Shown: piece after piece, positions 27,528-64,000 of the stretch | Numbering within the stretch: the stretch's first letter is position 1 | Layout: every line of letters starts with the position of its first letter | IMG/VR virus record: IMGVR_UViG_3300027881_000008 | Location: 1-64,000 of that record | DNA length: 64,000 nt | Source: a virus | Reading direction: 5' to 3' (one strand) | Translations under genes and position numbers: made by a program | The notes under the pieces: generated by a model | Database searches by the model: none | What the model was told of the DNA's origin: nothing | The model's input: the letters and a program-made list of their open reading frames with translations, nothing else

Positions 27528-27802
27528 CCTACTCCCACCAGCAGCAGCAGCAGCACCAGCCCTACGGCCAAATCCCTGGTCTCCCCGTCCCCGGCGCTCC
27601 GGTGGGGGACGAGGTCTTGAAGGACGTCTCGGTGCGAGCGTTCGAGCATATCTGGCCGCTAATGGAGACGCGCCTCGACGAGAAGCTCGCGCGGGAGCGG
27701 TACGTGACGTTTGCGATGAGCGGGCTCGCCATGGCGGGATATTTTGCACTGCTGTGGGCGGTGGGCGTCAAGCTCCCGTGGCAGCGGAAATGGCGACGAT
27801 AG
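27524..27802 (+). CDS. Small membrane protein
   Basis: Q-rich N-terminus (PYG); TM helix followed by RKWRR. Confidence 0.6.
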   Translation: MTYSHQQQQQHQPYGQIPGLPVPGAPVGDEVLKDVSVRAFEHIWPLMETRLDEKLARERYVTFAMSGLAMAGYFALLWAVGVKLPWQRKWRR

Positions 27803-28192
27803 ATGGCATCGTACCGACCCAACTACTGGAACAACTACCCCGAGCCTTTCTACGCGGACTGGCAGCAGGAACCGATCCCCGGGTGGGGCGCCCGCCCGGT
27901 CATGGCGGGCCCAGCTCGCGTGGGGGTGGGCGCCATGATCAGCTTGGCCAAAGAGCAGAAGCTTTCGTCGCACCTTACGTTGGCCAGGATAAAGCCCCAC
28001 ACGTTGGCCAGGATAAATCCCCACGCGATTGTGCGGCTGCCCGGATTCGTGGGAAAGCCGCCGGCCGACGAGGGAGGAGGCGGAACCACCCCTTCAGAGC
28101 CGTCGTCCGGTCTGCGCTGGTTTATCGCGGGTGCGCTCGTCTTGTCGGTCGGCGGCATCGGCTTCTACCGTGGATGGAAGGGAAAGCGATGA
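27803..28192 (+). CDS. Small tail-anchored protein
   Basis: RVGVG motif; TLARIxPH duplication; TM helix followed by KGKR. Confidence 0.65.
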   Translation: MASYRPNYWNNYPEPFYADWQQEPIPGWGARPVMAGPARVGVGAMISLAKEQKLSSHLTLARIKPHTLARINPHAIVRLPGFVGKPPADEGGGGTTPSEPSSGLRWFIAGALVLSVGGIGFYRGWKGKR

Positions 28193-29550
28193 GCTACCAG
28201 GGGATAGGCGCGCCGCCGGGGATGACACTGCTAGGCGGCGGCGCTGGCGCAGTAGGGCGCCGTGACCTCGGCGCAGTCGATGACCGGCCGGGGATGGCAC
28301 TGCTAGGCGGCGGCGCTGGCGCAGGCTGTTCGCTCGGGTACGAGCTGTCGGGGATGGACCCGCAGAGCGCTTCGTGCCCCGGGGGCGGTTGCGACTCGGA
28401 TTATTGCTGCTCTCCCCGAGACTGGCGCGACTCGGTTTATTGGAAGCTCAAGGGCGCGGTAAACTACGCGTACTTTCAAGAGGCATCTATCCGCAAATCT
28501 CTCTACCAGCTCCTCGACGTCCCTACCCCCACCGGGTTTCCGAGTCGTCTGGACGAGTACGCCTACGACGCCTGCGGGGACGAAGAGGGCCCAGCCTTTA
28601 CGCAGAGTCTCGAGGCGCTGCGGGCGCGCCTCAAGCGCGCCGGGTTTAACCTGTGGAATATCTTGCCCCCCGACCGCTGGTCCCGCGAAAAGAAAGGGGT
28701 GCGCTCGGAGTGCCAGAGCGACGGCTGGCTCAGCCAGATGCGTGCTCCCTATCCCTACAAGATCAGCGGCGGGGGCTTCATGGCGCGGTTGGCCTACTGG
28801 CGCGACGGCCCCATCGAGGGAGAGCGGGCGAAGTCCGTCTACAACGTTACGGGCGGCCATCCTGGCGCCTTCAAGGACTGGCTGGCCGACAAGGCGATTC
28901 CCCTGATCGCGACTTCGCCGACGAGCACTCGTATCGAGAACTCGTCCTTCAACCCGGATGGATACGACTCTGGCGGCGACCCTAGGTGGAAGGCCAAGGC
29001 GCCGTGGGCGCTGGTGGACCGTTGGATAGGCACCACCGCGCCGGCAGAGATAGCCCCGCTCATGCTCACCTGCGGTCCCAACTCCCGCCTGGGGGGCTGC
29101 TCCGGGTGCGAGGCCCCACCCGACCGTTGGGCGGCGCAGCACGGCGGCGACCCAGGCAACCGAGTCACGATGCGCGATATGGGGAAAGCCCCCTCGATGC
29201 GCTGGTGGGCTCGCTTCTTGGACGTGTTCGCCCCTTTGCCCGACGTGGGCTGGGAGCCTGCGACGAAGGCCGGTCGCGCTGCCCAACAAAGCCGCTTCGT
29301 TCTCGCTAAAACGCCGGGGCGGGTGGCGGCCCACAGCGCTTCTCTTCCTTCGCTGATGGCGGTTAGGAAGCCAGCCCCTAGGTTCGTGGCTTCGGACGAA
29401 GGGATCGAGCGGCGCGTCGGGGGCGGCACCCCGCCGGCACCGCCGGGCAAAAGCGCCACACAAGGAGCTGTCCCATGGGTCCTGGCGGGACTTGTTGGGG
29501 CGGGCTTGGTTGGCGGCGGCGTGTGGTATTGGAGGAGCAGGGATGTATAG
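28189..29550 (+). CDS. Cys-rich tail-anchored protein, paralog A (spike/receptor-binding candidate)
   Basis: MSYQGIG; shares two near-identical blocks with the next gene; TM helix followed by WYWRSRDV. Confidence 0.75.
   Translation: MSYQGIGAPPGMTLLGGGAGAVGRRDLGAVDDRPGMALLGGGAGAGCSLGYELSGMDPQSASCPGGGCDSDYCCSPRDWRDSVYWKLKGAVNYAYFQEASIRKSLYQLLDVPTPTGFPSRLDEYAYDACGDEEGPAFTQSLEALRARLKRAGFNLWNILPPDRWSREKKGVRSECQSDGWLSQMRAPYPYKISGGGFMARLAYWRDGPIEGERAKSVYNVTGGHPGAFKDWLADKAIPLIATSPTSTRIENSSFNPDGYDSGGDPRWKAKAPWALVDRWIGTTAPAEIAPLMLTCGPNSRLGGCSGCEAPPDRWAAQHGGDPGNRVTMRDMGKAPSMRWWARFLDVFAPLPDVGWEPATKAGRAAQQSRFVLAKTPGRVAAHSASLPSLMAVRKPAPRFVASDEGIERRVGGGTPPAPPGKSATQGAVPWVLAGLVGAGLVGGGVWYWRSRDV
28513..28654 (+). 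repeat. 142-bp direct repeat (second copy at 29822-29963)
   Basis: Two mismatches by eye. A second, less identical block pairs about 29058-29250 with about 30608-30800. Confidence 0.9.
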
Positions 29551-31105
29551 AGCAGTGGGAAAGCCGCCAGGGGTCGGTTTGGGATCGTTTGGTCCCGGCA
29601 CCGCAGGCGCAGGCCCCGGCTGCAGCTTGGGCTACGAGAGGGGGGGGATGGAGCCCGAGAGCAAGGACTGCCCTACCGGGGGGTGCGACAGCGAGTTCGG
29701 CGACGCGAGGGACTGTTGCGGCGTCTCACATTGGCGAGATTCTGTCTACCACAGGATCAAGGGGGGGCAAGCCTATCAGTACTTCCAAGAGGCGGCCATT
29801 CGGAGGGCCCTTTACGACCTGCTCGACGTCCCTACCCCCACCGGGTTTCCGAGTCGTCTGGACGAGTACGCCTACGACGCTTGCGGGGACGAAGAGGGCC
29901 CAGCCTTTACGCAGAGTCTCGAGGCGCTGCGCGCGCGCCTCAAGCGCGCCGGGTTTAACCTGTTCTCGATCCTTCCCCATAGCCGATGGTTCGTGGACGC
30001 CACCGGGACCAAGAGTCCCAAAGCCATCGACGTCGTGCACTTGGCCCCGTGTAGCGACTCTCAAGAAGACGGCTGGTACAGCAAGCGTCGCGTGTACCCC
30101 TACCTGAACGACGACTTCGTTCGGGTCAAGGTGAAAGGAAACGACGGCAAGTACCGGTGGGTCGTGAAGCCTCGCGGCACGACGACGGAAAACAAGAAGT
30201 ATCCGTGGGACACGGGAGAAAGGGAAGGGGGGGAGCCCGTTTGCGCCCGGCAGGACGGGGGTTGGACCGCGCACCCCGCCATGTCCACCATACCCGGTGG
30301 GAGTAATCTGTTCGGCCCTGAAAACTCGGAACTCAAAAAGGGCTTCAAGAACCCCTGCATCGGGGGCGCGCCGACCGTCAACAAAGAGATGGCGATATTT
30401 AACGTCACGGGCGGCAAGCCGGCCAAGTTCTGGGACTGGTGGGAGGACTTCGGAAAACCCCTCATTCGTTTCTCCCCCATCAGCAGCAGGGAACACCACT
30501 ATGGGGGACACCGAGACGCCTCTGCGACGCCGCGCTGGAAAGCGTGGAACCCCGAGCAAACGGAGAAACGGTTCACGGGCACCGTAGGTCCGGCTGAGGT
30601 GGCCCACCTCATGCTCACCTGCGGGCCCAGTTCGCGCTATGGAGCCTGCTCCGGGTGCGAGGCGCCAGCCGACCGTTGGGCGGCGCAGCACGGCGGAGAC
30701 CCAGGCAACCGAGTCACGATGCGCGACATGGGGAAAGACATCTCGATGCGCTGGTGGTCGAGGTTCTTGGACGTTTTCGCCCCTATGCCTGACGTGGGCG
30801 GCGGCGCCCCGAAAATCGACACGAGCAAGCTGAAGGCCGGGCTGAAGTTGTTCACCGCGCCGAAGAAGGGAGCGACTGGGATTTCTATCCACGGGCAGAT
30901 CGCTCCAGGTGCATTAAAAGCTGCGAGCATGGCTGTTTCGAGGCGGCCTGCCCCGGTGTTAGTGGCCCACGACGAGGGCTCCGTAGACGCCCCTCCACTG
31001 CCCCCAGCGCCTGCTCCCAAAAGCAACGTCCCCTACATTCTGGGTGGCATCACGGCGGTCGGCCTGGTCAGCGTAGGGGTCTGGTATTGGAGGAAGGATG
31101 TATAA
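29543..31105 (+). CDS. Cys-rich tail-anchored protein, paralog B
   Basis: MYRAVG..GVGLG; same conserved blocks with a longer variable centre; TM helix followed by WYWRKDV. Confidence 0.75.
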   Translation: MYRAVGKPPGVGLGSFGPGTAGAGPGCSLGYERGGMEPESKDCPTGGCDSEFGDARDCCGVSHWRDSVYHRIKGGQAYQYFQEAAIRRALYDLLDVPTPTGFPSRLDEYAYDACGDEEGPAFTQSLEALRARLKRAGFNLFSILPHSRWFVDATGTKSPKAIDVVHLAPCSDSQEDGWYSKRRVYPYLNDDFVRVKVKGNDGKYRWVVKPRGTTTENKKYPWDTGEREGGEPVCARQDGGWTAHPAMSTIPGGSNLFGPENSELKKGFKNPCIGGAPTVNKEMAIFNVTGGKPAKFWDWWEDFGKPLIRFSPISSREHHYGGHRDASATPRWKAWNPEQTEKRFTGTVGPAEVAHLMLTCGPSSRYGACSGCEAPADRWAAQHGGDPGNRVTMRDMGKDISMRWWSRFLDVFAPMPDVGGGAPKIDTSKLKAGLKLFTAPKKGATGISIHGQIAPGALKAASMAVSRRPAPVLVAHDEGSVDAPPLPPAPAPKSNVPYILGGITAVGLVSVGVWYWRKDV

Positions 31106-45793: not shown

Positions 45794-46038
45794 GCCTCAA
45801 AGCGGAGGCGGTCGGTTACGGCCAGCAGCCGCCAGGCGGCGCACTCGTCCTCGGCGCGCGCCACGGTGGCCACGTACGAGTAGTCGTACGCTTCCGGGGC
45901 CGTAGTCCACCACCAGCTGAGTTCGGGCCCCAGCTCGGGCTGCAGCTCGCGCACGCTCACGAGAGCACCTCTTCCACCCGCACGGCGTTCGATGGCGACG
46001 GCCGCGTCGAAATCGGGGTGGTGGTAGAGGCGGCTCAT
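45679..46038 (-). CDS. Hypothetical protein
   Basis: GAGGAGG RBS; its 5' end is duplicated at 47412-47463. Confidence 0.55.
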   Translation of the reverse strand: MSRLYHHPDFDAAVAIERRAGGRGALVSVRELQPELGPELSWWWTTAPEAYDYSYVATVARAEDECAAWRLLAVTDRLRFEACQEPRYHSGLHACVEADTDEALARGLPRRAELEGGQC

Positions 46039-46071
46039 GGCGCCTCCTCGTGAGCCCCGGGCACCTCGGGC
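45988..46071. repeat. 84-bp direct repeat (second copy at 47412-47495)
   Basis: One mismatch; spans the stop, RBS and start of a gene junction. Confidence 0.92.
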
Positions 46072-46487
46072 ACGTCGCGCACCACCTCCATCTCAAGTGG
46101 AAGCAGCGCTTGCGCGAGCGCCGCGTAAAAGTGCTCGCTGGCGTCGTCCGCGCGTTTCGCGGCTACGAGGCGCCACGCGCCCGCCTTGAGCTGCAGATCG
46201 AACAGGGCGTAGTGGGCGCCGCTTGTCCACCATTCGACGGTCGCGTGCCCCGCCACTGGGGGGCCCTCGGTGCAGAGCCGCACACGCATGCTCGCGGGGC
46301 GACCGAACGCGCACTCTGCTGTAATGACGGCGCTCACCTCGGCCCCGTAGGGGGACTTCCCCACTTCAAGGAGTCGCGTCACGGTCTCCCAGTCGGTCAA
46401 CCGGCAGCACCACGGCAGCTGGAACTCCTCGCTGAGGAGTCCTGCCGCCTCTTCCCAGGCGGGGTGGTTTCGGTGCGTGTTATCCAT
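46035..46487 (-). CDS. Hypothetical protein
   Basis: GGAG RBS; ends in PEVPGAHEEAP, as does 47459-47731. Confidence 0.55.
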   Translation of the reverse strand: MDNTHRNHPAWEEAAGLLSEEFQLPWCCRLTDWETVTRLLEVGKSPYGAEVSAVITAECAFGRPASMRVRLCTEGPPVAGHATVEWWTSGAHYALFDLQLKAGAWRLVAAKRADDASEHFYAALAQALLPLEMEVVRDVPEVPGAHEEAP

Positions 46488-46512
46488 ATCTTTGCTCCGG
46501 TGAGTTGTGGTC

Positions 46513-46541
46513 GGGGCGCGGCCCGCGGTGAGCCGCGCCCC
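46513..46541. terminator. GC-rich hairpin between genes
   Basis: GGGGCGCGGC-N9-GCCGCGCCCC; no U-tract. Confidence 0.35.
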
Positions 46542-46551
46542 TAGGGGGTGG

Positions 46552-47400
46552 TCAGGCGTTGAGCAGCGCGGGCGAGCCCCACGCGAGCAGGATGCCCGCC
46601 TCCTGCACGTCGGTGACCTTGCTCTTGCCCGCTGCGATTAGTCTTGCAGCGAGGTCGCGCGCGGCCGTCAGGGGCCTCGGTCGCGGCTTTCGGCCGACCG
46701 AGGCGAGGATCTTGTTGCTGTCGCAGCTGAGCACCAAGCCGGGCGCCAGCTCGGCGACGAGCGCTTGGATGCGGGGCAGGCGCCGGTTGCGCTCGCCCAG
46801 GCCCAGGAGGTGCAGGGCTCGGGGCGGTCGCTCGGTGAGCAGCTCGCGCACCTCAGCGTCCGTCGTAGCGCCCTTCTTGCAGGGCAGGGCGCGGACGAAA
46901 TCGAAGCCAAGCTCCGCTTCGCAGCACCGGTCCATCTCGCTCAGACTGAGCAGGCCGCGCTGCAGGGCGACGAGGACGTGCGCTCCCAGTTCGTGCAGCT
47001 CGCGCACCTCGTCGGCGTAGTCGTGCAGGCGCACCAGCGTGGACGCTTGGCAGCCGACGAGGTCGGGTGCGACGACGTGGAGCTGGCTGCCCAGAGCCAC
47101 CGCGAGGCGGCGGTAGAGGGCGAGCGTACGGACCCAGCGTTCGTGGGTGTAGGGCTTCACGACGACGAGCCGGCCCGCGTGGGGGCAGAACTGCACCTCG
47201 CCGAACGCGCCGCTGTCCACGAACACGGGGACGCCCGTGCCGGCCAACGCGACGAGCGCGGCCTCGGCGCTGGGTCCGACCTCGGTCGCGGCCACGCCGA
47301 TGGGCTGGCCGAGGCGCGAGAAGGCGCGGATTTCGCAGGCCCGGTTGGAGCCGGACGCGAAGTAGAGTGGTGGAGCAGGGTGGTTTCGGTGCTGGTTCAT
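46552..47400 (-). CDS. TGT/DpdA-like guanine transglycosylase-fold protein
   Basis: VFVDSGAF, VVAPDLVG, VALQ, LHLLGLG and SCDS. Confidence 0.7.
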   Translation of the reverse strand: MNQHRNHPAPPLYFASGSNRACEIRAFSRLGQPIGVAATEVGPSAEAALVALAGTGVPVFVDSGAFGEVQFCPHAGRLVVVKPYTHERWVRTLALYRRLAVALGSQLHVVAPDLVGCQASTLVRLHDYADEVRELHELGAHVLVALQRGLLSLSEMDRCCEAELGFDFVRALPCKKGATTDAEVRELLTERPPRALHLLGLGERNRRLPRIQALVAELAPGLVLSCDSNKILASVGRKPRPRPLTAARDLAARLIAAGKSKVTDVQEAGILLAWGSPALLNA

Positions 47401-47458
47401 CGGTCGGTCCCTTCGATGGCGACCGCCGCGTCGAAATCGGGGTGGTGGTAGAGGCGGC

Positions 47459-47731
47459 TCATGGCGCCTCCTCGTGAGCCCCGGGCACCTCGGGCTGCAG
47501 CGCTGCCAAGGCGTGGCCGACAAGATCGACGAAGTTCCTGTCGAGCACGCTTCCTTCTTTCATGACCTCAAGAGCGTCATCCTCTGTGTCGCAGATTGCG
47601 ATCACGGGAGCAGCCTGTAAGACTTCCCATGACCAATTCTTGTTGTAGGCCCGGACAATCCAAGCCTGATTAATGGGTGAGTACTGAGCTATCTGCCCGC
47701 TCAAGTACAGGCTGCGTCGTTTGCGTGTCAT
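47459..47731 (-). CDS. Hypothetical protein (lower GC)
   Basis: AAGGA RBS; first gene of the leftward accessory operon. Confidence 0.55.
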   Translation of the reverse strand: MTRKRRSLYLSGQIAQYSPINQAWIVRAYNKNWSWEVLQAAPVIAICDTEDDALEVMKEGSVLDRNFVDLVGHALAALQPEVPGAHEEAP

Positions 47732-47831: not shown

Positions 47832-47907
47832 TTAGCGTACGGATAATTAAAAAATATCCGTACGCTAAGAATAGGTGCGTACGGATAATAGGGTATTATC
47901 CGTACGC
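47832..47907. promoter_or_regulatory. Twin palindromes GCGTACGGATA-N9-TATCCGTACGC
   Basis: 14-bp perfect arms at 47832-47845/47855-47868 and 47877-47890/47894-47907, in the AT-rich strand-switch gap. Confidence 0.8.
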
Positions 47908-48268
47908 TGCTAGAGGGTCGCCGCGAGCCAACACTGGTTGAGGCCGCTGCCACGATGCAGCCGCCCACCGAGCTCCTCTCAATTCGGAGGCGAGCCGGTC
48001 CCAGACACCCCACAGGAGGTGGAGCAGAGTCGCTGTGCCGCACCGGGCCCCATGGCCACGGTAACCCGGCGCAAGCTAGCCAACGAGGAGACCTCTCCGG
48101 GCCATCGTTGTCGACCGAACGCCTAGCCGCCAGCTCCCGGGAGCTGGCCCCGCCAAGGCACAACCGACGACGGCGCCGAGAGCCCCCACGGCTACCGGGC
48201 ACAGCGACTCTGCTCCGCACCCTGACCAGACCCCCACCGCGAACCACCACCAGGCAGGAGACCCCGCC

Positions 48269-53247: not shown

Positions 53248-54375
53248 GCTACTCCGAATGCCCCAGCTGCCAGCGCAAGGGCTGGCACCGCCCGTCCGCA
53301 GCAAAGGCCCAGCGCGCATGGGGCGCCGTAAGCGGGGCCCCGCAGTTCAGGCGTTGCCGCTACTGCGGGCACGACAACCGCCTGCTGCTCGCCGAGCGAG
53401 CGCTCCAGGCCACTTTCGATGCCGCGCATCGAAAGCTCGCCCGGACGTTAGACAAGAATAAGGAGAACGGAAAATGAGAAAACCAAGAACATTCCACTTG
53501 CGTTACGTCACGGCCGTCGACCCCGGAGAGGTGGTGGAACAGACCGTCACGGCCGTCGACCCCGCATGCGCTCTCGGCCTGTTGCTCGACGAGTCCGACG
53601 AGGACGACCTGCAGCTGAAGTGGGTCGCGATCAGCCGAGAGCCCTTCAGGCACTGGCCAGAGGAGACATTATGAGCGACATGGAACAAGTAGCACGGCGA
53701 GCAGTGGACTGTGAGGGCTGGCGCTGTATGCGAGGTATGCTGTGTCTCACCGACGAGGACGGATACGCAGCGCGAATACTTCACGTCAGCCGTTTCAGCT
53801 ACCACGCTGCTCTGCCCGACCTCGCCGACCCTGCAACGCTCGGGTGCCTTCTCCATTTGGTTAGAGAGGCGTGGAAGGATGAAGGGCTCACCGCCGTGGT
53901 TGCCAACTACGATCACGAGAATGGGTATCAATGGCGGGTTGTCGGTGGTCATCACCATGGCTCAACCTTCATGGCAATGGGCCAAAAAAGGTATTCGACC
54001 GAAGCAGAGGCCTTGGTCACAGCGCTGGAGGCAGCAGTTGCGCTCGACGCAAGAGAACGGGTTGAATCCGCATGAATGGCTGGTCTGTCCCCGCCAAACG
54101 CACCCAGGCCCCCTCTCGGCGCCGTTCCGCCGCGAGCGACGATTGGATCTAGCCCGAGATTGGGTTAGGGATGTACCGTGAAACGGTTTGTCGTGCGCGG
54201 TAAAGTGACGCTCGACGTCTCTACGATGGTGGAGGCGGACGACCAGGAGCGGGCCGTGGACGAGGCTGTTTGCGCGTTGGTGGCAGAGCGCGTCCGCGGG
54301 ATGGGGTATCCTACCGACATGGTCGTCGAAGCTACCGCGATGCGAGCGCGCGAAATCCCGCCGCGCCCCAGGTGA
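53244..54375 (+). CDS. Run of small genes (53244-53477 Zn ribbon, 53474-53674, 53671-54075, 54178-54375)
   Basis: ATGA couplings; CPSC..CRYC; PDLADPATLGCLL motif in 53671-54075. Confidence 0.55.
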
Positions 54376-56069
54376 GCAGTGTCGCCCGGGTGACCGGGCG
54401 CGTCGTGCTCGTTCGGCCCGACCAGCTTGGCTCGAGTTTCTCGGTCACCGTTGGTCCGCCGCCCGATCTGTTCTGGTTCCGCTGTTCGCGCAAGCCCCCC
54501 AAGCTGGGGCAGAAGGTGCGGGTAACCGGCGAGCTGGGCGACAAGAGGGACATCGGCACCAGCTCCGTGCCCGCGTCGATCACGACTCTCCACCATGCGC
54601 GCCACGAGGTGCTGCCCGACGCGCACGACACGCGCGTCGTTCCCCCGGCGTGGCTCAAGCGCGTACAGGATGTGATGGCGCGCCCGCTCTATCCTTACCA
54701 AGCCGAGGGCGCCGGCTGGATCTGCTCTCGCCTGTCGAGCGGCGGAGCTATCCTTGGCGACGACCCCGGCCTCGGAAAGAGCGCGCAGACCGTGGCGGCC
54801 ATCTGCGCCATGCGCTCGTTCCCCGTCGTCGTCTGCTGCCCCAGCTCGCTCAAGCCGCACTGGGCACGCGAGTTCGGGTTCGCCAATGACGTGCCCCAGA
54901 TCCAGGTCGTACACGGGAAAAAGGGGCCCCTGTACCAGGCGGACGTTTACGTCATCAACTACGAGCTGCTCCGCTCCCGCGAGGCCGAGCTCAAAGCCTT
55001 GAGGCCGCGCTTGTACGTCTTCGACGAGGCCCAGGCCCTCAAGTCCCCGCTCGCGCGCGGCAAACATCGAGCGGCAGTCGCGACCCGGCTCGTGCGTGAG
55101 ACGCGCGGAGCGGTGCTGCTCTCGGGCACTCCCGTGGTCAACAGGCCCAACGAACTGTGGAGGCTGCTTCACCTCTGCGACCCCAAGGAGTGGCCGTCGT
55201 TCGCCGACTACAAACACCGGTACCTGGAGGGGCGCAAAGGCAAAGAGGTGGGGCGTTCGGTGAGGACCGCAGCGGGCAAGGTCGAGCGCCTCGACGAGCT
55301 GCACGCCAAGGTCGGCCCCTTCCTCTTGCGGCGCCTCAAGAGCCAGGTGCTCACCGACCTGCCGCCCAAGAGTCGCCGGAGCGCGCTGGTGCGGCTGGCG
55401 GAGGCGGATATGGCTCACTACCGGCGCGCGGAGAAGGACGTCGTAGGTTGGCTTCGGTCCATAGGGCACCTGCGCCGGGCGGCCAACGCTCAACGCGCCG
55501 AGAGCATCGTGCGGCTGACGATGCTGCGGCGCATAGCCGCCATGGGCAAGCTCCGCACCGCCATCCCCAATTACCTGCGCACCTGGTTCGCGCGCAGCGA
55601 GGCGGCTCCGCTCGTCCTCTTCGGCTATCACCGCGAGGTGATCAAGGGCCTTTGGCGCATCTGTCAGTCGATGGGACTCCGCGTCACGGGGATCGGAGGA
55701 GCGGAGGGGCCTGACAAGCGCCAGCGCCAGGTTGACGCGTTCATGGACGGACTGGCCGACGTGTTCATCGCCCCGATTGCAACGGCCGGAGTTGGACTCA
55801 ATCTGCAGCGCGCGGCCGACGCTCTCTTCGTGGAGCGAATTTGGACCCCGAGCGGGATGATCCAAGCGGAGGACCGCATCTGGCGCCTGGGGCAGCGTCG
55901 CCCGGTTACAATCACCTACCTGGACGCTGCCGGCACGGTAGACGAACACGTCGCCCAGGTGATCGATGCAAAGCAGCGTTTGATCAACGCCATCGTCGAA
56001 GACGCAGGGGGCGCGGAGTCCATGAAAACGGTCGCGGAGGTCGCTCAGAGGCTCCAAGAGGCGAGCTGA
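54372..56069 (+). CDS. SNF2-family (HARP/SMARCAL1-like) ATPase/helicase
   Basis: GDDPGLGKS, DEAQ, LSGTPVVN, GVGLNL and QAEDRIWRLGQ. Confidence 0.92.
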   Translation: MSSVARVTGRVVLVRPDQLGSSFSVTVGPPPDLFWFRCSRKPPKLGQKVRVTGELGDKRDIGTSSVPASITTLHHARHEVLPDAHDTRVVPPAWLKRVQDVMARPLYPYQAEGAGWICSRLSSGGAILGDDPGLGKSAQTVAAICAMRSFPVVVCCPSSLKPHWAREFGFANDVPQIQVVHGKKGPLYQADVYVINYELLRSREAELKALRPRLYVFDEAQALKSPLARGKHRAAVATRLVRETRGAVLLSGTPVVNRPNELWRLLHLCDPKEWPSFADYKHRYLEGRKGKEVGRSVRTAAGKVERLDELHAKVGPFLLRRLKSQVLTDLPPKSRRSALVRLAEADMAHYRRAEKDVVGWLRSIGHLRRAANAQRAESIVRLTMLRRIAAMGKLRTAIPNYLRTWFARSEAAPLVLFGYHREVIKGLWRICQSMGLRVTGIGGAEGPDKRQRQVDAFMDGLADVFIAPIATAGVGLNLQRAADALFVERIWTPSGMIQAEDRIWRLGQRRPVTITYLDAAGTVDEHVAQVIDAKQRLINAIVEDAGGAESMKTVAEVAQRLQEAS

Positions 56070-56170
56070 GCTTACGTCGCTTAGGTCGCTTACGTCGCTT
56101 AGGTCGCTTAGGTCGCTTCCGTCGCTTACGTCGCTTACGTCGCTTAGGGGCTCCAAGAGGCGAGCTGAGC
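56040..56170 (+). repeat. 9-bp tandem repeat GCTT(A/C)(C/G)GTC, eight copies plus a partial, between 32-bp direct repeats
   Basis: Units at 56070-56148; flanks at 56040-56071 and 56139-56170 (two mismatches). Confidence 0.9.
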
Positions 56171-56186: not shown

Positions 56187-56849
56187 ATGGCCGAACTAGT
56201 CCTTTACGCGAACCCGTACGAATACGGCGCGAGCGGGTTCTACTTTCGCTCCGCTGAGGAGTACGAGAAGGCGTTCGACAAGCACCGCCCCGTCGAGGAG
56301 TATTCGCTGGAGTTCATCAACGGGTCGAGCGAAGACGTGGACCTGTTCAAGGTGCTCGAGGTGGACGCCTCCAACCTCGAACAGTTCTTCACGTTCGCCG
56401 AGGACATGGACGACAGCCAAAAGGCCGCCCTGTTTTACCTGATCGCCCACCGCGGGAAGGGTCCTGGGGAGACGGTGGACGACCTCATCGAGAAGTCGGA
56501 AGACGTGAGTGTACACCCCGGAGACGTGGGCGACTGGGCCGAGAGCTTCATCGAAGACCAGGGAGGAGTTGCGGAGTTCCCGCGCGAGTTCATCGAGCAA
56601 CACTTCGACTACGCGGCCTACGGAAAGCTCATCAAAGAGGACATGGAAGAGGGCGACTACCGCGCGGATATGAGCGACGAGGATGCGGGGTACGAGTTCG
56701 TGGACGACGTTGGGATCAAAAACATCCCCAAAGCGGACCTCGAATACCACTTCGACGTCGACTCGTGGGTGAGGGACCTCGCTGCGGGCAGCGACGTAAC
56801 CGCGTTCGAGTTCGGCGGGGCGCAATACGCCACCGACTACTCCGGCTGA
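56187..56849 (+). CDS. ardA: ArdA-like antirestriction DNA-mimic protein
   Basis: Extremely acidic; YANPY..GFYF N-terminus; twin FDYAAYG and FDVDSWVRDL motifs. Confidence 0.75.
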   Translation: MAELVLYANPYEYGASGFYFRSAEEYEKAFDKHRPVEEYSLEFINGSSEDVDLFKVLEVDASNLEQFFTFAEDMDDSQKAALFYLIAHRGKGPGETVDDLIEKSEDVSVHPGDVGDWAESFIEDQGGVAEFPREFIEQHFDYAAYGKLIKEDMEEGDYRADMSDEDAGYEFVDDVGIKNIPKADLEYHFDVDSWVRDLAAGSDVTAFEFGGAQYATDYSG

Positions 56850-57751
56850 GGCACCGTCCACGCCAGCCGCACGATGCCCCCATCAAGACCGATTTGGGCC
56901 TCGCCGACCAAAATCCTCTGACCGAAATTAAATCGGACACCGCCCGTGCTTGTCCTTTCAGCCCAACGTGGCGAAACGCAGGCGCGCCAGCGGCGACGGC
57001 CTCGTTCGCGAGCAGCCCTATTACGTCTATCACGAGCGTCCCTTAGGCGTGCCTTCATCGTAGCCGCGAAACGCGCGGACGAGCGACCCAACGGCCCGCT
57101 ACGCGCCAGCGAGCACTTTTCGGCATTCCAGGCATTCCATTCGGCGTCGCTACGGCGACGGCCGTGGTATCCCTCTTCCACGCACCTGGGACAAGGGCGC
57201 TTGCGCGTGAGACGTGACGTGGGTTCCCAGTTGAAAGGGTCGTCCACCGCAGCGCTCGCTCGGATCTCAGCTAAGGGAACCCCTTCAAGTGCGCGAGCCT
57301 TCCCGTCGTCCACCGGGTGGGTGTGGTAAATCTCCACGGCTGCCTGGATGTGGCCGCCCTTTAGAACGGCGACATCTACGACCCTTGCGTTTGGAAGCCG
57401 GTGCTCCACCGCGACCACGCTTGAAGCGGCGGGTCGAAAATCCGAGGTCCAACTGCCTCCGCACCCGTGTTCGGAGCAGCTGCGGCGGACGCGGATGGCT
57501 TCGCCCCCGTCTCGGGCCACCTCAAGCGCCCAGGCCACCCGCATCTTCGCAACCCGGTGGACGATGCTCTCGTGCGAGCAACCCGAGCCGAGGTGAGCGA
57601 AGTGTCGACACACCTGCGTATCCGGGCCCCCTCGTACCATGAGCTTGCAGCGGCAAGCAGGACATACCAGCTCCTCGGTGTCGCGACTGTCCCCAGGAGG
57701 GACAAGGGTTCCGAGAGAGTCGAGCCCAAATGGAACCTTTAGCTCCTTCAT
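56837..57751 (-). CDS. CoiA-like Zn-finger plus PD-(D/E)xK nuclease
   Basis: CPAC..HFAH..C.HES..H..AK; EHRL...VDVAV...AVEIYHTH. Confidence 0.75.
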   Translation of the reverse strand: MKELKVPFGLDSLGTLVPPGDSRDTEELVCPACRCKLMVRGGPDTQVCRHFAHLGSGCSHESIVHRVAKMRVAWALEVARDGGEAIRVRRSCSEHGCGGSWTSDFRPAASSVVAVEHRLPNARVVDVAVLKGGHIQAAVEIYHTHPVDDGKARALEGVPLAEIRASAAVDDPFNWEPTSRLTRKRPCPRCVEEGYHGRRRSDAEWNAWNAEKCSLARSGPLGRSSARFAATMKARLRDARDRRNRAARERGRRRWRACVSPRWAERTSTGGVRFNFGQRILVGEAQIGLDGGIVRLAWTVPQPE

Positions 57752-57755
57752 TTTC

Positions 57756-58920
57756 TTATGACGACCCCCTCTGGGCGAACCCCTGGGGCCGGAGCCTGCG
57801 CACTACGCAGGGGGGCATCGCGCGAACTACCTCCTCGAACGCTTCGGCCTCCGCCTGCTCGCGCGGAGTCCCGCTCTCCTGCTTTATCGCGGCGCGCTCC
57901 TCCAGCAGGTACGCGAGCTCGGCCTCGTCGTGGGACCGGACCACGTCCGGCGAAAGCTGGCGCGTCACCAGAGCGACTCCTGGCTACCGGGCGCCGGGGT
58001 TCCGCTTTCTAGGGCCGACACGACGGCTTCGTGAGCGTCGCGAGCGGCGGAGCCCTTGCAACAAGTCTTGAACGACGCGGCTGCACCTAGGAGGGCGCCG
58101 CGCAGGTCGTCCTCCGAGGCATCCGGGTCAAGAGCGAGCATGGCCCACGCATCGACGTCGGTCCGCGCCGGCAGTTCGGGGCACGCGGCAGCGAAATAGA
58201 CGGACGCCTGTGGGCCGCGCTCCCACGAGCCGAGACGTTGGCAGAAAGGGCTCATCCTCTCCCCGCACTTCGGGCACGCGACGACGACGCCCAGGGCTAT
58301 CTTTACTACTGCTGGGGGCGCGGGCGGCGCGGGCGCTACGGGCGGCGGCGGCGGCTTCGCAAACGCTGGCGCTCGCCTTATCTGCTCGCTGCAGCCATCG
58401 GCCGCCCGCGCCGCGCTTCGGCGCGCTGCGCTGGGCGCGGGCGCTGCGGTGGACGGCCACTCGTGGGGCGCCTCCATCCGGCGGCGCGGGCGACCGCCCC
58501 TGTTGGAAAAAGCGGTCATGTGACGTTTCTTCACTTCCGGTCCCCGCACACCACGCCGAAAAAGGTGCCCGGCACGGCAGGAGGGAACGGTGAAACCGAG
58601 CACATTACCGCAGCGACCGGCGCCGCAATAAGGACGTGGCCGCCGGTAGGTGGGCGTTTTACGACGTCGCCCTCTCGCCGTCGGCCTCTTCCAGCCTGCA
58701 CCTGAGAGACTGAGCGCACAGTGGGAGGGACACCGGCGAGGTGCCGGAGACGGCTTTTGTAATACCACTTCTCCTCGCGTGGAGCGCAGTCGATGCACCC
58801 GCCGCCCGCGTCCCCGCAGCTGAAGCAAAGAGGCTCCTCGTCGCGAAAAGCGAACGGCTCTTCGCGCAGAAAGGCCGCCGCGCGTTCGACGCAGTCCTTG
58901 GGTACCTCGCTCAAATCCAC
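57756..58920 (-). CDS. Three small genes (57756-57968 EERAAI-type, 57965-58519, 58531-58920 Cys-rich)
   Basis: Co-oriented downstream of the HTH gene; CxxC pairs. Confidence 0.45.
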
Positions 58921-59120
58921 ACCTCGGAACTGACCTGCAACAGGCTGCGCAGGCTCCCCATGTGCTGGCGATCAGGAACGCGGGTGCCCGCCAGCCACCG
59001 GGTGACGGTGGAGGGGGACACCTCAAGCCGGCGGGCCAGCTCGCGCTGACTCCACCCTTTTTGTTGTAGAGCCAGCGCGAGCGCCTTAGCCCCGGCGTTG
59101 GTGTTTTCTGGTTCAGCCAC
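58911..59120 (-). CDS. XRE/Cro-C1 helix-turn-helix regulator
   Basis: GWSQRELARRLEVSPSTVTRWLAG.RVP. Confidence 0.9.
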   Translation of the reverse strand: MAEPENTNAGAKALALALQQKGWSQRELARRLEVSPSTVTRWLAGTRVPDRQHMGSLRSLLQVSSEVWI

Positions 59121-59125
59121 GCCCC

Positions 59126-59205
59126 ATGGTGCCCAGTTGTTGCCTTCAGGTCAACAACCTTGACCTCGGCGATCTCTAGGTCCATGATGTTGCCTTGGTG
59201 GCAAC
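59126..59205. promoter_or_regulatory. Back-to-back promoters with two 17-bp operators
   Basis: Leftward TTGACC-N17-CACCAT; rightward TTGACC(59160)-N17-CATGAT(59183); operators at 59139-59155 and 59189-59205. Confidence 0.7.
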
Positions 59206-59251
59206 GCCGGTCGCGAGCCGCCCACACAACCGCAAAGAATGGAGCCTGAAA

Positions 59252-59842
59252 ATGAAAATGGAATTGATGTTCCCCTCGAAATATCTGCGCGCTGTCGACC
59301 TCGACGGCGAGCGCCTGGTAACAATCGCCGACGTCGTCATGGATGAACTCGTCATGCGAGGAGGTCGGCGGGAGGAAAAGCCGGTCATCCACCTGAAGGG
59401 GGACGACAAGATGCTCGTCCTCAACAAGACGAACGCAGAGACCATCGCCGGCTTGTACGGAGGCGAGAGCGACGAGTGGCGAGGGAAGGAACTCGTTCTT
59501 TTCCCGACCGACGTCACGTTTGGTCGCGAGCGGGTGCTCGCGATCCGGGTGCGCGCTCCTGGGGGCGCAAAGCAGGCCGAGAGCGGCGCTCCTTTTGGCG
59601 CCGACGAGGACGACTGGGCGGCTGCCGACGCCGAGGGGGCGCCTGACTGGTTCGGAGAGGTGGCCGCGTCCCTTTGGCTGCCGTTGGCCGCCGCCTTCGA
59701 CGCAGACGAACTCGCGCGCACGGGGAGCGCCGTGAAAGAGGCTTGGGGGCGCAAGCGGATCAACCAGAACGAGCGCGACGCGCTCAAGAAGAAGTTCGTG
59801 GAGGTGCGCCGCGCTCTCCACAATGAGAGAAACTCCGCGTAG
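59252..59842 (+). CDS. Phage SSB-like/OB-fold protein (tentative)
   Basis: FPSKYLRAVDL, LVLNKTN and W.GK...L...V.F...AIRVR. Confidence 0.6.
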   Translation: MKMELMFPSKYLRAVDLDGERLVTIADVVMDELVMRGGRREEKPVIHLKGDDKMLVLNKTNAETIAGLYGGESDEWRGKELVLFPTDVTFGRERVLAIRVRAPGGAKQAESGAPFGADEDDWAAADAEGAPDWFGEVAASLWLPLAAAFDADELARTGSAVKEAWGRKRINQNERDALKKKFVEVRRALHNERNSA

Positions 59843-59862
59843 GAGGTGGTAGGCTGGCTTTC

Positions 59863-62800
59863 GTGAGCCAAGCCGCTATCGACATCCACCGCCCCGAGGC
59901 GCAGTTAAGCCGCACGGTGTTGGAGCTAAAGCAGCTCGCGACCGTGTGGGGGAGGAGCGCCAAGGGGCGGAGCTATGTGGAGGCACTTCTCACGTTCCTC
60001 AACCGAAAGCAGAACCACAACACTCAGCGGGCGTACGCTTTTGGTCTTCTTGAGTTCTTCGGCTGGTACGAGCTGAAAAAGGGACGGACGCCCCTGCCCG
60101 AAGAGGTACGGCGCGTAGACGCGTATGCGTTCAGCGATTACCTGCAGAAGCGAGACATTGGGCTCGACGAGCAGCGCCTTGCCCAGGACCCGGACCACGC
60201 GCTTGACCTCGCCATCTACCGTTACGTCAAGGGTCACCCGTCGGCGCGGATTAGCGCCATCCGCAAGAAGCTCGTCGCGGACCACCGGTTCACCCAGACT
60301 GTCGAGTTCGAGGCTGGGGGCCGCAAACAGAGCCTGCGGGTGCTCAGCATCGAGGCCGATGACCTTCGTGGCGACGCCTTGGCGGCCTACGTTGCGAAGC
60401 ACGGCTTCGCTCCGCCGGACCCCCTCGACGAGCGCCTCGCGTGCATGGTCGACCACAACCTCTTGCGCAGGACCCCGACGATACGCCGCGTACGAAGCGG
60501 CGACGCCGGACTCGGCCTGGAGCACCCGAGCCGCGCCCAGCTCGACTTCCGTGTCGACCCCGAGGTTTTCTCGTATTTTGTGGACGTCCACACCACCGCG
60601 TCTGGCGCCGAGCGCGCCAATAGCGTAGTGACCCGGCTCAGTGCGTTAGCGAGCTTCTGGACCTACCTGATCACCGAATCAGCGGAGAACGCCGCGGGGA
60701 GCGAGCCCCTCCTCAAACACAACATTTGGACCGAGCCCCGCGCGCAGCTCATGGGCGCAGCCAAGAGCCGCAGCCGTGCCTCGCGCGAGCTGAAGACGCC
60801 GTCTCGTGAGCTGTTTTTAAGGGTCTTGGCGACGACGTTCGTGCGCAGTCACGAGGGCCAGGAGCTGCAGGCGGCCAGCGCGTTTCTCGAAGGCGCCGAC
60901 GTCAGCGGGTCTTCCAGCGGGGAGGCCGGCATTTACGACCTGCGTGACCGGGCGCTGATGGTTTTCGCCTATTGGACCGGCGCGCGCGCCGAGGAGATGC
61001 GGTCGCTGTCTCGCGACGCGGTGCAGCCTGACGGCCTCGTAACGGTGCTGGGGAAAGGAGACAAAACCCGTTCTTTTGCCGTGCCCCCTCCGGCTCTGCG
61101 CGCGATCTCCGACTTCCAGGCAGAGCTTGACGCAAGGTCCGAGGGTTCGTCCGACCCCAATGCCCTGGTCCACAAGCTCACCGCGTCCGCGGCGCCGCTG
61201 TTCCCGCCCCTGAAGCTTTGGGGCCACAACCGAGGAGCCCAGTTGGTGGGACTCTCCGCCGACTCTTTCTCGAAGATGATGCGGCACCGGGGCCTCCGCG
61301 CAGGGGTGGGGCGACAGAGCGCCGAGTGGAAGAAGCTCCACGCCCATGGGGTGCGACACCTGGCCGCGCTCGAAGCCCGGCAAAGGGGGGTCGACCTCGC
61401 CACCATCCAGGGCACCCTCGGTCACTCCAGCCTGTCCACCACGGGGATCTACATCGAGGTGCGCGACCCCCTGAAACGGTCTCTCATGCCTGCGCGCTCC
61501 GCCCCCGGCGGCGCTCCCCCCTTCCAGCGGCGCGCCCCAGGGCACGAGCACCCCGAGGCGGAGGAGGTGATCGAGGAGATAGAGATCGACGAAGAGCCGG
61601 GGCTGGTCGGGGTGGGCGGCCAACCCGAGGTCCCACCTGGCCTCTACGAGGAGGACGAGGAAGCTGGCGACGAGCCTTTCCCACTTGATGAAGAGGAAGA
61701 GGAGGCGCCCGAAGAGGACGCCCTGACGCTCGTCCACCGGGACGCCGAAGAACTCGTGGCGGAGACCGATGCGGTCGAGAAGCTTCTCCAGGTCTACCGG
61801 AGCAACTGGGGCGAAACGGGGAAGCGGGCCAAGCTGGTGGATGCGAAGGGCCTGTTGGGGAGCACGTACGCGGGGCGACCTACGGGGCTTCCGTGGTGGC
61901 AGGGCGCGGCGGGCGCTATGAACGCCTCCTACTCCTACGTTCCCAACGAGGCAGAGACGACGAAGTTCCCGGCCATGCCAGTGATAGGGCCCCAGCAATT
62001 CGTGATGGAAGCCGGGTGGGGCGAAGAAGACTGCGACGAGCCTCTCTGCCAGGCGCTCGGCGAGCTTTATTCGCAGTGGCTCCAGGACCCCGAGCGCGGG
62101 CCCACAGCCGCGGCGGCGTTGACAGAATGGATCTTCACCTCAGCGATGGTGACGCTCGAAGTGGATGCGGTGGTGCGCGAGCGGTCAGGCCACTGGGTGG
62201 CGTTCGACTCCCCGCTCGAAGACACAAAGAGCGGCCAGGGAAAGCCTCGGGTGTTGCGCGAGCACCTCAACGACGCTGTGGTGAGCTGGTTCGAGCGGAC
62301 GGCATGGCAGTTCCGCCGCAGCGCCGACAGCGCCACCGCTCGCGGCTCCGAGCTCACCGTCCCTGCCTGGTACTCAAAGAAAGACCCGCTGCTCGACATC
62401 CCCGCTCCTGAGCGCGCCGAACTCATCGACTGGCTGCAGGTTTTCGTGGGCCTTCCCCCACTCGACAAGACGCCGCGCTTCGACCACGGCGCCTCGCGGG
62501 CCAAGGTGGGAAAGCTGCTGGGCACCCTGTGCGCGTACGACACTCTGGCGACCGACCCCGACCGCACCCGCAAGCGCGAGCAAAAAGAGATCCTCAGCGC
62601 CGTGGAAGATCAGATCACCGCCGACGTGAAGCGAGCAACCAAGGGGCGCGTCGCGGATTTCCGCTACGGCGACACCAAGAAGCGCCGCAAGATCGAAACC
62701 GTCCAGGCCGAAATGGCGCGCGAAAAATCCAAGAGAGAGGGCAGCGAAGAAGCCGCCGAGGCTTCTACCAAATACTCGAAATACCTTGCGACCCACCTCA

Positions 62801-63459
62801 TGGAGGTCGTGGGAGAGGTCTTCGGAAAGAAGGCAGCTGAAGACCCAATCCTCAGCCTATACGCTCTATGCACGGCCGGAGCGCCGCTCAAGTCGCGCGC
62901 CGACAAGTACAAACCACTGTTCCGGGCGGGGGGCGGAACCATCGAGCACACTCCCGAGTTCGCCGAGCAGTTCGCCCAGGAGACGGGCACTCACTCCGAA
63001 TGCGTGGCGCGCCGTCTGGCGCGGCACATCTACGAGGAGGGACGCGCCCCCAAATGGTACAAGCTCCGCAACTGGCCGCGTGACGTTATCCCTTACCTCG
63101 AGTCGCTTTCCGCCTACCGCGTTCCGTGCCCGTCGAGCCAAGAACACGAACTCCGAAAGCGACTCAAAAGCGAAGAGCCACTTCCCGTCTACAGGCGGTG
63201 GCGCGAGGCTAGCCAGCGACTTCTGGGGACATCGGTTCCAGAGTCCACCGAGGTGGAAGAGATGTTCGCGGAGGAGGCGGGGCGGGGAGCGCCCATCCAG
63301 GCTTTCCGCCCGAGGGACGCAGAGGACTACGAGACGCGTCAGGTCTCCTCCGAAGAGAGCGCCGGGGGCCCAGGCGTGGTGGTTCGCCGCCGCCTCGCGA
63401 CCCCCAACGGGATGCAGCTGCTCCCGCTCTTGTTCGCGATGAAAAGGGCACGAGGATGA
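59863..63459 (+). CDS. Giant tyrosine recombinase (Xer/Int catalytic domain, insertion, long C-terminal extension)
   Basis: RDRALM..TGARAEE (R), GKGDKTR (K), HGVRH (HxxR) and LGHSSLSTTGIY (H, Y). Confidence 0.9.
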   Translation: MSQAAIDIHRPEAQLSRTVLELKQLATVWGRSAKGRSYVEALLTFLNRKQNHNTQRAYAFGLLEFFGWYELKKGRTPLPEEVRRVDAYAFSDYLQKRDIGLDEQRLAQDPDHALDLAIYRYVKGHPSARISAIRKKLVADHRFTQTVEFEAGGRKQSLRVLSIEADDLRGDALAAYVAKHGFAPPDPLDERLACMVDHNLLRRTPTIRRVRSGDAGLGLEHPSRAQLDFRVDPEVFSYFVDVHTTASGAERANSVVTRLSALASFWTYLITESAENAAGSEPLLKHNIWTEPRAQLMGAAKSRSRASRELKTPSRELFLRVLATTFVRSHEGQELQAASAFLEGADVSGSSSGEAGIYDLRDRALMVFAYWTGARAEEMRSLSRDAVQPDGLVTVLGKGDKTRSFAVPPPALRAISDFQAELDARSEGSSDPNALVHKLTASAAPLFPPLKLWGHNRGAQLVGLSADSFSKMMRHRGLRAGVGRQSAEWKKLHAHGVRHLAALEARQRGVDLATIQGTLGHSSLSTTGIYIEVRDPLKRSLMPARSAPGGAPPFQRRAPGHEHPEAEEVIEEIEIDEEPGLVGVGGQPEVPPGLYEEDEEAGDEPFPLDEEEEEAPEEDALTLVHRDAEELVAETDAVEKLLQVYRSNWGETGKRAKLVDAKGLLGSTYAGRPTGLPWWQGAAGAMNASYSYVPNEAETTKFPAMPVIGPQQFVMEAGWGEEDCDEPLCQALGELYSQWLQDPERGPTAAAALTEWIFTSAMVTLEVDAVVRERSGHWVAFDSPLEDTKSGQGKPRVLREHLNDAVVSWFERTAWQFRRSADSATARGSELTVPAWYSKKDPLLDIPAPERAELIDWLQVFVGLPPLDKTPRFDHGASRAKVGKLLGTLCAYDTLATDPDRTRKREQKEILSAVEDQITADVKRATKGRVADFRYGDTKKRRKIETVQAEMAREKSKREGSEEAAEASTKYSKYLATHLMEVVGEVFGKKAAEDPILSLYALCTAGAPLKSRADKYKPLFRAGGGTIEHTPEFAEQFAQETGTHSECVARRLARHIYEEGRAPKWYKLRNWPRDVIPYLESLSAYRVPCPSSQEHELRKRLKSEEPLPVYRRWREASQRLLGTSVPESTEVEEMFAEEAGRGAPIQAFRPRDAEDYETRQVSSEESAGGPGVVVRRRLATPNGMQLLPLLFAMKRARG

Positions 63460-63932
63460 GACGCGGGTACCTGCGCCTCTACGTCTACGCCAAGAACGGC
63501 GAGCGCATCGTCGCCAGCCCGATTTTGTCGGCGGCGCTTCTTCCCTCTACCACCATCCCTGGGCTTCCCGGCGAAGCTTGGGAGCTGGCCGATAGGAACG
63601 AGGAGGGCCTCCGGCGCGCGGCCGTCGAGCTGCTCGTCCACCGCCGCAAGCGCTCCAACAGCCGCGTGTACGGGATAGCCTTGGTAAAAGGCCCCGCAAG
63701 AAGGAACTCCGCCTACCTCTCGCGGGCCGCGGGCCGCCCGGTGAGCCTCACTGCAACGAACAGTTACATTGCCGCGTTCGCGGCTGTCGGCGACAGCAAC
63801 ACCGTGTGGGCCGGGGATGCGCAACGAGAGACGCTTAGCGACCTGGTGACCCACCTGGGGCGCTGCGTCCGGCACGTACGTACCGAAGAGACCCAGGAGC
63901 CCGGGATGTTCGCGCCTGCTCTGGAGAGATGA
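63456..63932 (+). CDS. Hypothetical protein
   Basis: ATGA-coupled to the recombinase. Confidence 0.5.
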   Translation: MRRGYLRLYVYAKNGERIVASPILSAALLPSTTIPGLPGEAWELADRNEEGLRRAAVELLVHRRKRSNSRVYGIALVKGPARRNSAYLSRAAGRPVSLTATNSYIAAFAAVGDSNTVWAGDAQRETLSDLVTHLGRCVRHVRTEETQEPGMFAPALER

Positions 63933-64000
63933 AGGTGGAGCCCTGGACGCGAGGCAATCGGACAGGCTTTTGAGCGCGCTCCGAGAGCACTCACGGGAGT

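Follow-up and report, generated by a model that had tools for sequence, protein, structure and literature searches.

A virus-encoded tyrosine recombinase of 1198 residues with a predicted winged-helix insertion and a family-specific C-terminal module

Few DNA enzymes have been studied as thoroughly as the tyrosine recombinases, which also serve widely as tools for genome engineering. To our knowledge, the known members measure 300-450 residues and have at most an N-terminal arm-binding domain added. What kind of enzyme, then, is encoded by an open reading frame (ORF) of 1198 residues that carries a tyrosine recombinase active site, and on which DNA might it act? We addressed this question for a gene in the first 64 kb (64,000 nucleotides, hereafter the window) of the 75,008-bp IMG/VR virus record IMGVR_UViG_3300027881_000008, a linear fragment of 66% G+C with a CheckV completeness of 52%. 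A previous reading of these nucleotides by themselves (the original prediction) had proposed a multi-domain recombinase. This proposal holds: the winged-helix insertion is recovered in the predicted structure, the C-terminus matches no described family and the fusion is conserved. It is near certain that the ORF encodes an intact, predicted catalytically competent tyrosine site-specific recombinase with an Xer-like active site, belonging to the 'simple' type that consists of core-binding and catalytic domains without an arm-binding domain. Near certain, too, are three distinguishing additions, namely a winged helix that interrupts the core-binding domain, a flexible linker rich in acidic residues, and a family-specific C-terminal module of ~500 residues with a conserved terminal peptide. 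The gene and its parts are as follows.

59863-63459, plus strand: recombinase gene, single ORF of 1198 residues with a GTG start
59911-60150, plus strand: core-binding (SAM-like) domain, first part, helices in residues 17-96
60151-60606, plus strand: winged-helix domain inserted in the core-binding domain, residues 97-248
60607-60774, plus strand: last core-binding helix (residues 249-271) and connector to the catalytic domain
60775-61497, plus strand: Xer-like catalytic domain, residues ~305-545
60985-60987, 61054-61056 and 61345-61347, plus strand: catalytic codons of R375, K398 and H495
61354-61356, 61423-61425 and 61450-61452, plus strand: catalytic codons of R498, H521 and Y530
61498-61734, plus strand: acidic, proline-rich linker, residues 546-624, poorly conserved and variable in length
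61735-62457, plus strand: C-terminal module, alpha+beta sub-domain, residues 625-865
62458-62817, plus strand: C-terminal module, long helical hairpin region, residues 866-985, charged and variable
62818-63237, plus strand: C-terminal module, helical sub-domain, residues 986-1125
63238-63456, plus strand: low-confidence tail, ending in the family-wide terminal motif

The recombinase ORF shares the third-position G+C excess seen in the other genes of the record, and the GTG start is supported by relatives that align from residue 1-5. The Pfam model Phage_integrase (PF00589) matched residues 359-534 with 59.1 bits (cut-off 27.1 bits). It also matched 31 of the 45 relatives scanned one by one, the remaining ones being C-terminal fragments. 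All residues of the R-K-HxxR-H-Y set, which the original prediction had described as complete, could be located: the active site comprises R375, E378, K398, H495, R498, H521 and Y530. E378 is kept in 73 of 74 full-length relatives and the other six residues in all 74. We read this near-invariance as selection on catalysis, which counts against a repressor with a recombinase fold, such as MrpR of SPbeta or SroF of phi3T. Together with a SAM-like core-binding domain on the N-terminal side of the catalytic domain, these features place the protein in the tyrosine recombinase superfamily.

The placement of the catalytic domain rests on hidden Markov model scores. The closest NCBIfam models were XerC (E-value 7e-22), XerA and XerD, with scores far below the equivalog cut-offs (78.1 versus 335 bits for XerC, 63.5 versus 330 bits for XerD and 67.4 versus 220 bits for XerA). 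The closest PDB proteins by sequence were XerD, XerA and a XerC-like protein, the match being confined to the catalytic domain; the best NCBIfam and PDB matches to Xer proteins had E-values of 1e-18 to 1e-22. No protelomerase family matched in Pfam at E-values up to 1, where only Phage_integrase and one chance match appeared. The Xer dimer resolvases are two-domain proteins of ~300 residues that act at dif under FtsK. In contrast, the present family is virus-encoded, about four times longer, and adds a winged helix and a C-terminal region of 570 residues.

The N-terminal part was modelled with AlphaFold (residues 1-300, 60-sequence alignment), giving a mean predicted local distance difference test score (pLDDT) of 93.8 and a predicted template modelling score (pTM) of 0.84. 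An all-against-all structural search (VIA) with this model returned two interleaved groups of matches. One group corresponds to the core-binding domains of Brujita Int, XerD, lambda Int and XerA, and Phage_int_SAM_1/4 (Pfam) was detected in 11-12 relatives. The other belongs to the inserted domain, which has the three-helix core with a beta wing that characterises a winged helix. Note that Foldseek with the same model found nothing significant, the split domain being detected by VIA only. The motif AYAFSDYL begins at residue 87, within helix 84-96, and SVVTRLSALASFWTYL begins at residue 254, within helix 249-271. Thus, in the model the core-binding domain really is split between these two helices by a winged-helix domain of ~150 residues, as had been suspected from the sequence. 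The winged helix bears a variable hairpin-plus-helix insert of its own (residues ~140-185), which is missing from about 60% of relatives. The helices begin at residue 17, and the alignment of lambda Int runs only from its residue 74 onward, at model residue 34; therefore the protein is without an arm-binding domain. Brujita integrase (PDB 5vfz) and lambda Int, integrases of about 300-350 residues, are alike to the present protein in the core-binding domain. The N-terminal arm-binding domain of lambda Int is absent from it, and no prophage form of the present family was seen.

The C-terminal '650 residues' consist of a linker of ~80 residues, a folded module of ~500 residues and a tail of ~70 residues. 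The very acidic character that had been ascribed to the stretch after the catalytic tyrosine is evident from its composition (27 D/E, 2 K/R and 12 P per 79 residues, at 546-624). A model of residues 625-1198 (pLDDT 76, pTM 0.72) shows four parts: an alpha+beta sub-domain, long helical hairpins, a helical sub-domain and a low-confidence tail. The original prediction had pictured a large helical region with several Cys. Six Cys are indeed present, but the region is not purely helical, since its first ~240 residues are alpha+beta. Conserved positions in the alpha+beta sub-domain are W649, W678, W679, P706, Q712, R799, H801, W809, D841 and R851. The hairpin region (residues 866-985) had matches of a non-specific helical kind only.

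The best-conserved stretch of the entire protein, residues 1026-1058, lies in the helical sub-domain, where H1029, H/D1044, S1045, E1046, C1047, R1050, R1051, R1054, C1089 and E1094 are conserved. H1029, S1045, R1050 and R1051 are kept in 74 of 74 relatives; E1046, C1047, C1089 and E1094 are kept in 72, as is either H or D at position 1044. The model places H1029 at the end of a beta hairpin, H1044 and C1047 at a helix N-terminus, and C1089 in a loop. This placement suggests a metal site, possibly a His/Cys site for Zn, beside an Arg-rich helix.

Nearly all 74 members end in the motif [LVM]-P-[STN]-P-[VI]-x-L-L followed by about 5-8 mostly hydrophobic residues (here window positions 63394-63456, residues 1178-1198), and in most relatives the 30 residues before it contain an x-x-N-[PA]-R motif once or twice. 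This conserved C-terminal peptide might serve for docking, form a helix that targets membranes or be a site of protease cleavage. The C-terminal region had no Pfam match at E-values up to 5 (45 relatives scanned singly), no NCBIfam, PHROG or PADLOC match, and no PDB or BFVD match by Foldseek when folded as one piece (residues 625-1198). ESM Atlas gave no usable match for residues 625-1198 or residues 975-1130. The earlier impression of a C-terminus outside known families is thus upheld, as no described integrase family was matched.

Is the fusion of these parts authentic? A full HMMER scan with the C-terminal region as query against 1.84 billion representative proteins found this region in 99 representatives (88 of them below 1e-10), and never alone or with another partner. 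All representatives of at least 1085 residues carry the recombinase half too, and about 75 cluster representatives share the full architecture; the shorter ones cover part of the protein only and probably stem from gene calls cut off where contigs end. The family amounts to about 100 clusters at 50% identity. The 74 full-length relatives, with 24-60% identity, have both halves in one frame. Near-identical DNA occurs in seawater/marine metagenome runs from 14 studies. In three other runs, contigs of a strain with 95-99% identity span 58526-64000 unbroken, one of them without any gap, and contigs from other runs differ over this interval by substitutions only. A spurious joining, in assembly or sequencing, of a normal integrase gene and an unrelated gene downstream of it, a suspicion prompted by the unusual length only, is vanishingly improbable, because the fusion is kept across the family and independent contigs cover the single ORF unbroken.

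Members of the family were found only in uncultivated virus contigs, comprising seventeen IMG/VR loci and further metagenome contigs. None of the 15 IMG/VR records queried is classed as a provirus. No relatives were present in 50,697 GenBank phage records or 72,556 PLSDB plasmids, nor in the genomes of 185,579 prokaryote species (one per species), which were scanned with two exact peptide patterns that reach close relatives only. A Lachnospiraceae locus (L006) considered as a member was rejected; it matches the catalytic domain only, at 30% identity, and is an ordinary recombinase. Among the IMG/VR relatives, two genomes of 143,727 and 136,226 bp have direct terminal repeats and are complete, two more are 91-96% complete, and the longest fragment carrying the family measures 182 kb. 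The complete ones are listed as UViG 3300018080_000003 and 3300010400_000001. Both have a terminal repeat of 123 nt, which looks like an assembly overlap, so that the assembly of these genomes is circular. The best-conserved genes between the complete relatives and the studied record are putative structural genes, beta-rich ORFs at 15.4-18.3 kb of the window, indicating that they form one viral lineage. The large recombinase is single-copy in each record, and nothing else in G000 or in most relatives' records matches PF00589; one relative (G007, 96% complete) bears an additional ordinary tyrosine recombinase, an open frame of 318 residues. The family is a single-copy core gene of an apparently widespread marine/aquatic lineage of uncultivated double-stranded DNA (dsDNA) viruses.

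Several kinds of gene were sought in these genomes with Pfam models. Serine recombinase, ParA (AAA_31) and S24 peptidase had no match in genomes at least 90% complete, and ParB had none in the two complete genomes. TerL_ATPase, Terminase_6N, TerL_nuclease, Phage_portal and Pox_A32 were unmatched in four genomes at least 90% complete (90-144 kb), and HK97 Phage_capsid and FtsK_SpoIIIE in four fragments tested. With these models, no virion module of the lineage was recognised (G000; relatives L027, L032, L038, L039 and L040).

Having described the architecture, conservation and distribution of the family, we infer the substrate and biological role of the enzyme and the task of its C-terminal module as follows. 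The DNA on which the recombinase acts may be the viral genome itself, with multimer resolution or genome cyclisation as the outcome, a reading to which we assign a probability of roughly 0.45. The enzyme would then target the virus's own replicating genome and not the host chromosome. One specific site per genome copy would be recombined, converting replication multimers into monomers or cyclising the incoming genome. Next to the core site, the winged helix would add a further point of DNA contact. Where or when the reaction runs would be governed by the tethered C-terminal module, via its possible His/Cys metal site and Arg-rich helix, in parallel to the role of FtsK-gamma for XerD or of the arm-binding domain in lambda Int.

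Action on the viral genome is favoured because the enzyme is of the simple, Xer-like type and a core gene, because no proviral form was seen, and because no lysogeny or partition genes were detected. We counted in its favour that two of the IMG/VR records are complete with terminal overlap, that the species genomes (pattern-limited scan), phage records and plasmids contained no relative, that the complete relatives are without an S24-type repressor, ParA, ParB or another site-specific recombinase (Pfam models), and likewise the extra ordinary recombinase of G007 and a gene context with SNF2, UvrD, ArdA-like, methyltransferase, ART-PolyVal and Cro-like helix-turn-helix (HTH) genes. Multimer resolution or genome cyclisation is the known task of Cre/loxP of phage P1 and of bacterial Xer/dif. 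Cre, encoded by a phage genome of about 94 kb, has about 340 residues and no extra domains; with loxP next to its gene, it cyclises the genome and resolves dimers. Like Cre, the present enzyme would be a simple tyrosine recombinase encoded by a large phage, and Cre, whose role is established, serves as our working model. Unlike in Cre, there are extra domains, and no loxP-like site was found for the enzyme. In a survey of phages, 410 had arm-binding integrases and 27 had simple recombinases, and simple Xer-type enzymes mainly serve replicon maintenance (PMC8138268).

The original prediction had listed dimer resolution linked to segregation or packaging, end resolution and transcriptional control as possible added roles. 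Among these, dimer resolution or packaging-linked processing appears to fit the distribution best. End (telomere) resolution is the least likely, since the catalytic domain resembles that of Xer proteins and the assemblies of the complete relatives are circular.

Several observations weigh against action on the viral genome. No recombination site of the enzyme and no recombination product in contigs were identified. The lack of prophages could reflect unsequenced hosts, given the limited reach of the species-genome scan. The circular assembly fits a circular genome and a permuted, terminally redundant linear genome alike. Moreover, simple recombinases can be integrases, with Brujita Int among the best structural matches, and the divergent Cro-like gene beside the recombinase operon is a classic lysogeny-module layout too.

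These last two points lead to the strongest competing explanation, in which the protein is a lysogeny integrase that inserts the viral genome at a host attB, the winged helix and C-terminal module replacing the arm-binding domain and accessory factors in providing directionality. Brujita Int, which integrates its phage, contributes a core-binding domain that is a top structural match; the large enzyme is the sole site-specific recombinase in most records and adjoins a divergent Cro/CI-type HTH gene; and the relatives are annotated as 'integrase' by their sources. However, a provirus was seen neither among the 15 IMG/VR records nor in the 185,579 species genomes (a pattern-limited scan, and hosts may be unsampled), the complete relatives have no S24 repressor, and G007 has an ordinary recombinase as well. 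The protein also has no arm-binding domain, unlike most phage integrases (PMC8138268). We regard a lysogeny integrase as a serious but less likely alternative, at about half the weight given to action on the viral genome.

A more radical alternative, which we consider improbable, is genome maturation coupled to packaging. In viruses that possess no recognisable terminase, unit-length circles would be cut out of replication products by the recombinase, whose C-terminal module and terminal peptide would dock it to the assembling particle. Such a scheme would accommodate the five unmatched terminase, portal and Pox_A32 models, the circular assembly of complete relatives, the status of the recombinase as a single-copy core gene and the conservation of the motif at the extreme C-terminus. 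However, only a handful of Pfam models were tried and a divergent terminase or packaging ATPase may exist, and the gene lies among early/DNA-metabolism genes and not with the putative structural genes at 15-18 kb. If true, this would be terminase-free genome maturation by site-specific recombination, coupled to particle assembly through the C-terminal module and terminal peptide. We know of no description of packageable genomes being matured by such a recombinase for large dsDNA viruses of bacteria.

We searched for a recombination site of the enzyme and found none. The convergent gap after the recombinase operon held no inverted repeat, and no integration, excision or inversion joints were seen next to the gene in the contigs of other runs, the comparison covering contigs only. 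Lox-like palindromes occur in the 75-kb contig only at 7855-7886 and 47834-47908, in addition to a GC-rich hairpin at 46511-46543. The element at 47834-47908 consists of two adjacent near-perfect palindromes with 12-nt arms GCGTACGGATAA and 7-nt spacers TTAAAAA and TAGGGTA (12-7-12). It is AT-rich in a genome of 66% G+C, unique in the contig, and situated in a divergent intergenic/promoter region. The double palindrome could represent operators, an origin or a recombination site. As the enzyme's site it is a candidate not tied to the recombinase, the spacers differing between the two copies and the distance being 12 kb.

In the relative G005, five copies of a ~70-bp cassette are clustered (L046:6126-9596 = G005 86126-89596), three in one orientation and two in the opposite one, with one pair 100% identical. 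Each cassette consists of a GGGCAGC..GCTGCCC hairpin, then a 31-bp palindrome of the 12-7-12 form, then GGAGGA and ATG, and stands before a small gene. A shufflon-like array was considered for this cluster and rejected; the succession of hairpin, palindrome, Shine-Dalgarno sequence and ATG before small genes identifies the copies as repeated expression or regulatory signals.

The double palindrome in the divergent promoter region bears on a further explanation that we likewise rate as improbable, namely a regulatory use of the protein, either in a DNA-inversion switch or as a transcription factor of the MrpR/SroF type. Recombinase-fold repressors exist (PMC10516654; bioRxiv 10.1101/2025.11.27.690993), and the winged helix provides an extra DNA-binding domain. 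Against this, the fixed catalytic residues distinguish the family from MrpR, which according to a published conclusion does not function as a recombinase (PMC10516654). In the window, no inverted site pair flanking a segment was found, and the repeat cluster of G005 consists of cassettes with a hairpin, palindrome and ribosome site before small genes.

Tyrosine recombinases longer than the ordinary ones have been described as the 'large' enzymes of the mobile elements Tn554, SE and GInt (PMC10214605). The present family resembles them in being longer than ordinary recombinases and in being carried on mobile DNA. In contrast, the Tn554/SE/GInt enzymes are encoded in an operon with a second, ordinary recombinase on small integrative bacterial elements, whereas here there is one large recombinase per viral genome of 130-180 kb. 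No similarity to them was detected outside the catalytic domain. The family thus departs from the known pattern twice, by a winged helix within the core-binding domain and by a conserved post-catalytic region of 570 residues of no known family or fold. Knowing the site and role of the enzyme would reveal how this lineage handles its genomes, and could provide a recombinase that recognises unusually long or bipartite sites.

The recombinase is situated at the end of a rightward operon, in the order 215-residue ORF, recombinase, 158-residue ORF. The features of the neighbourhood are as follows.

54270-56069, plus strand: SNF2-family helicase, the gene most regularly found near the recombinase
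58911-59120, minus strand: Cro/CI-type HTH regulator of 69 residues, divergent from the recombinase operon
59195-59842, plus strand: 215-residue ORF directly upstream, sole match phrog_21613, of unknown function
63456-63932, plus strand: 158-residue ORF, start overlapping the recombinase stop, no family match

In 4-5 other loci, a homologue of the 158-residue ORF is likewise found downstream of the recombinase. The SNF2 helicase is found within 10 kb of the recombinase in 12 of 18 loci, and homologues of the HTH regulator adjoin the recombinase or the SNF2 helicase in three (L003, L004 and L005). Other recurrent neighbours are UvrD helicase, ART-PolyVal, GP88-like and ArdA-like proteins, cytosine methyltransferase and endolysin. 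The setting of the recombinase is an early/DNA-metabolism and anti-restriction block, not the conserved putative virion block. PADLOC had no match for the recombinase and matched its neighbours with generic SNF2 and methyltransferase models only.

About ten tandem copies of the 9-nt unit GCTTA(C/G)GTC occupy positions 56061-56150, within the 117 nt that separate the SNF2 helicase from the ArdA-like gene. They are bracketed by a 41-nt direct repeat (88%; 56031-56071 and 56130-56170). Contigs of other runs break or vary at this array, one of them skipping 36 nt. The array looks like iterons or a protein-binding array. Further downstream, a 923-bp segment (56853-57775) is present in the record and in one seawater run, and a related strain from three other runs has one base instead. 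The segment contains a 304-residue ORF (56837-57751, minus strand) with a Cys/His N-terminus and a weak match to CoiA_N (E-value 2e-4, below the cut-off); it may be a mobile nuclease gene. Between 57776 and 59195, no clear coding signal was apparent except for the 69-residue HTH gene and a 70-residue ORF. This interval includes a G+C-rich, internally repetitive stretch at 58310-58478, in place of which the related strain of three runs has 31 unrelated bases.

Repeats were also observed elsewhere in the window. An 84-nt direct repeat (98.8% identical) occurs at 45988-46071 and 47412-47495, 1424 nt apart, in or next to minus-strand genes, and related strains have different joints near it, for example 46461 to 47378. 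ARAGORN called a tRNA-Gly(GCC) at 14963-15039 (minus strand) inside an 803-residue ORF (12932-15343, plus strand); the call may have arisen by chance or may mark a tRNA that overlaps the ORF. Finally, two collinear repeat pairs, 28470-28654/29779-29963 (91%) and 29041-29250/30590-30799 (87%), indicate that the ORFs of ~540-600 residues at 27754-29550 and 29492-31105 are diverged tandem paralogues.

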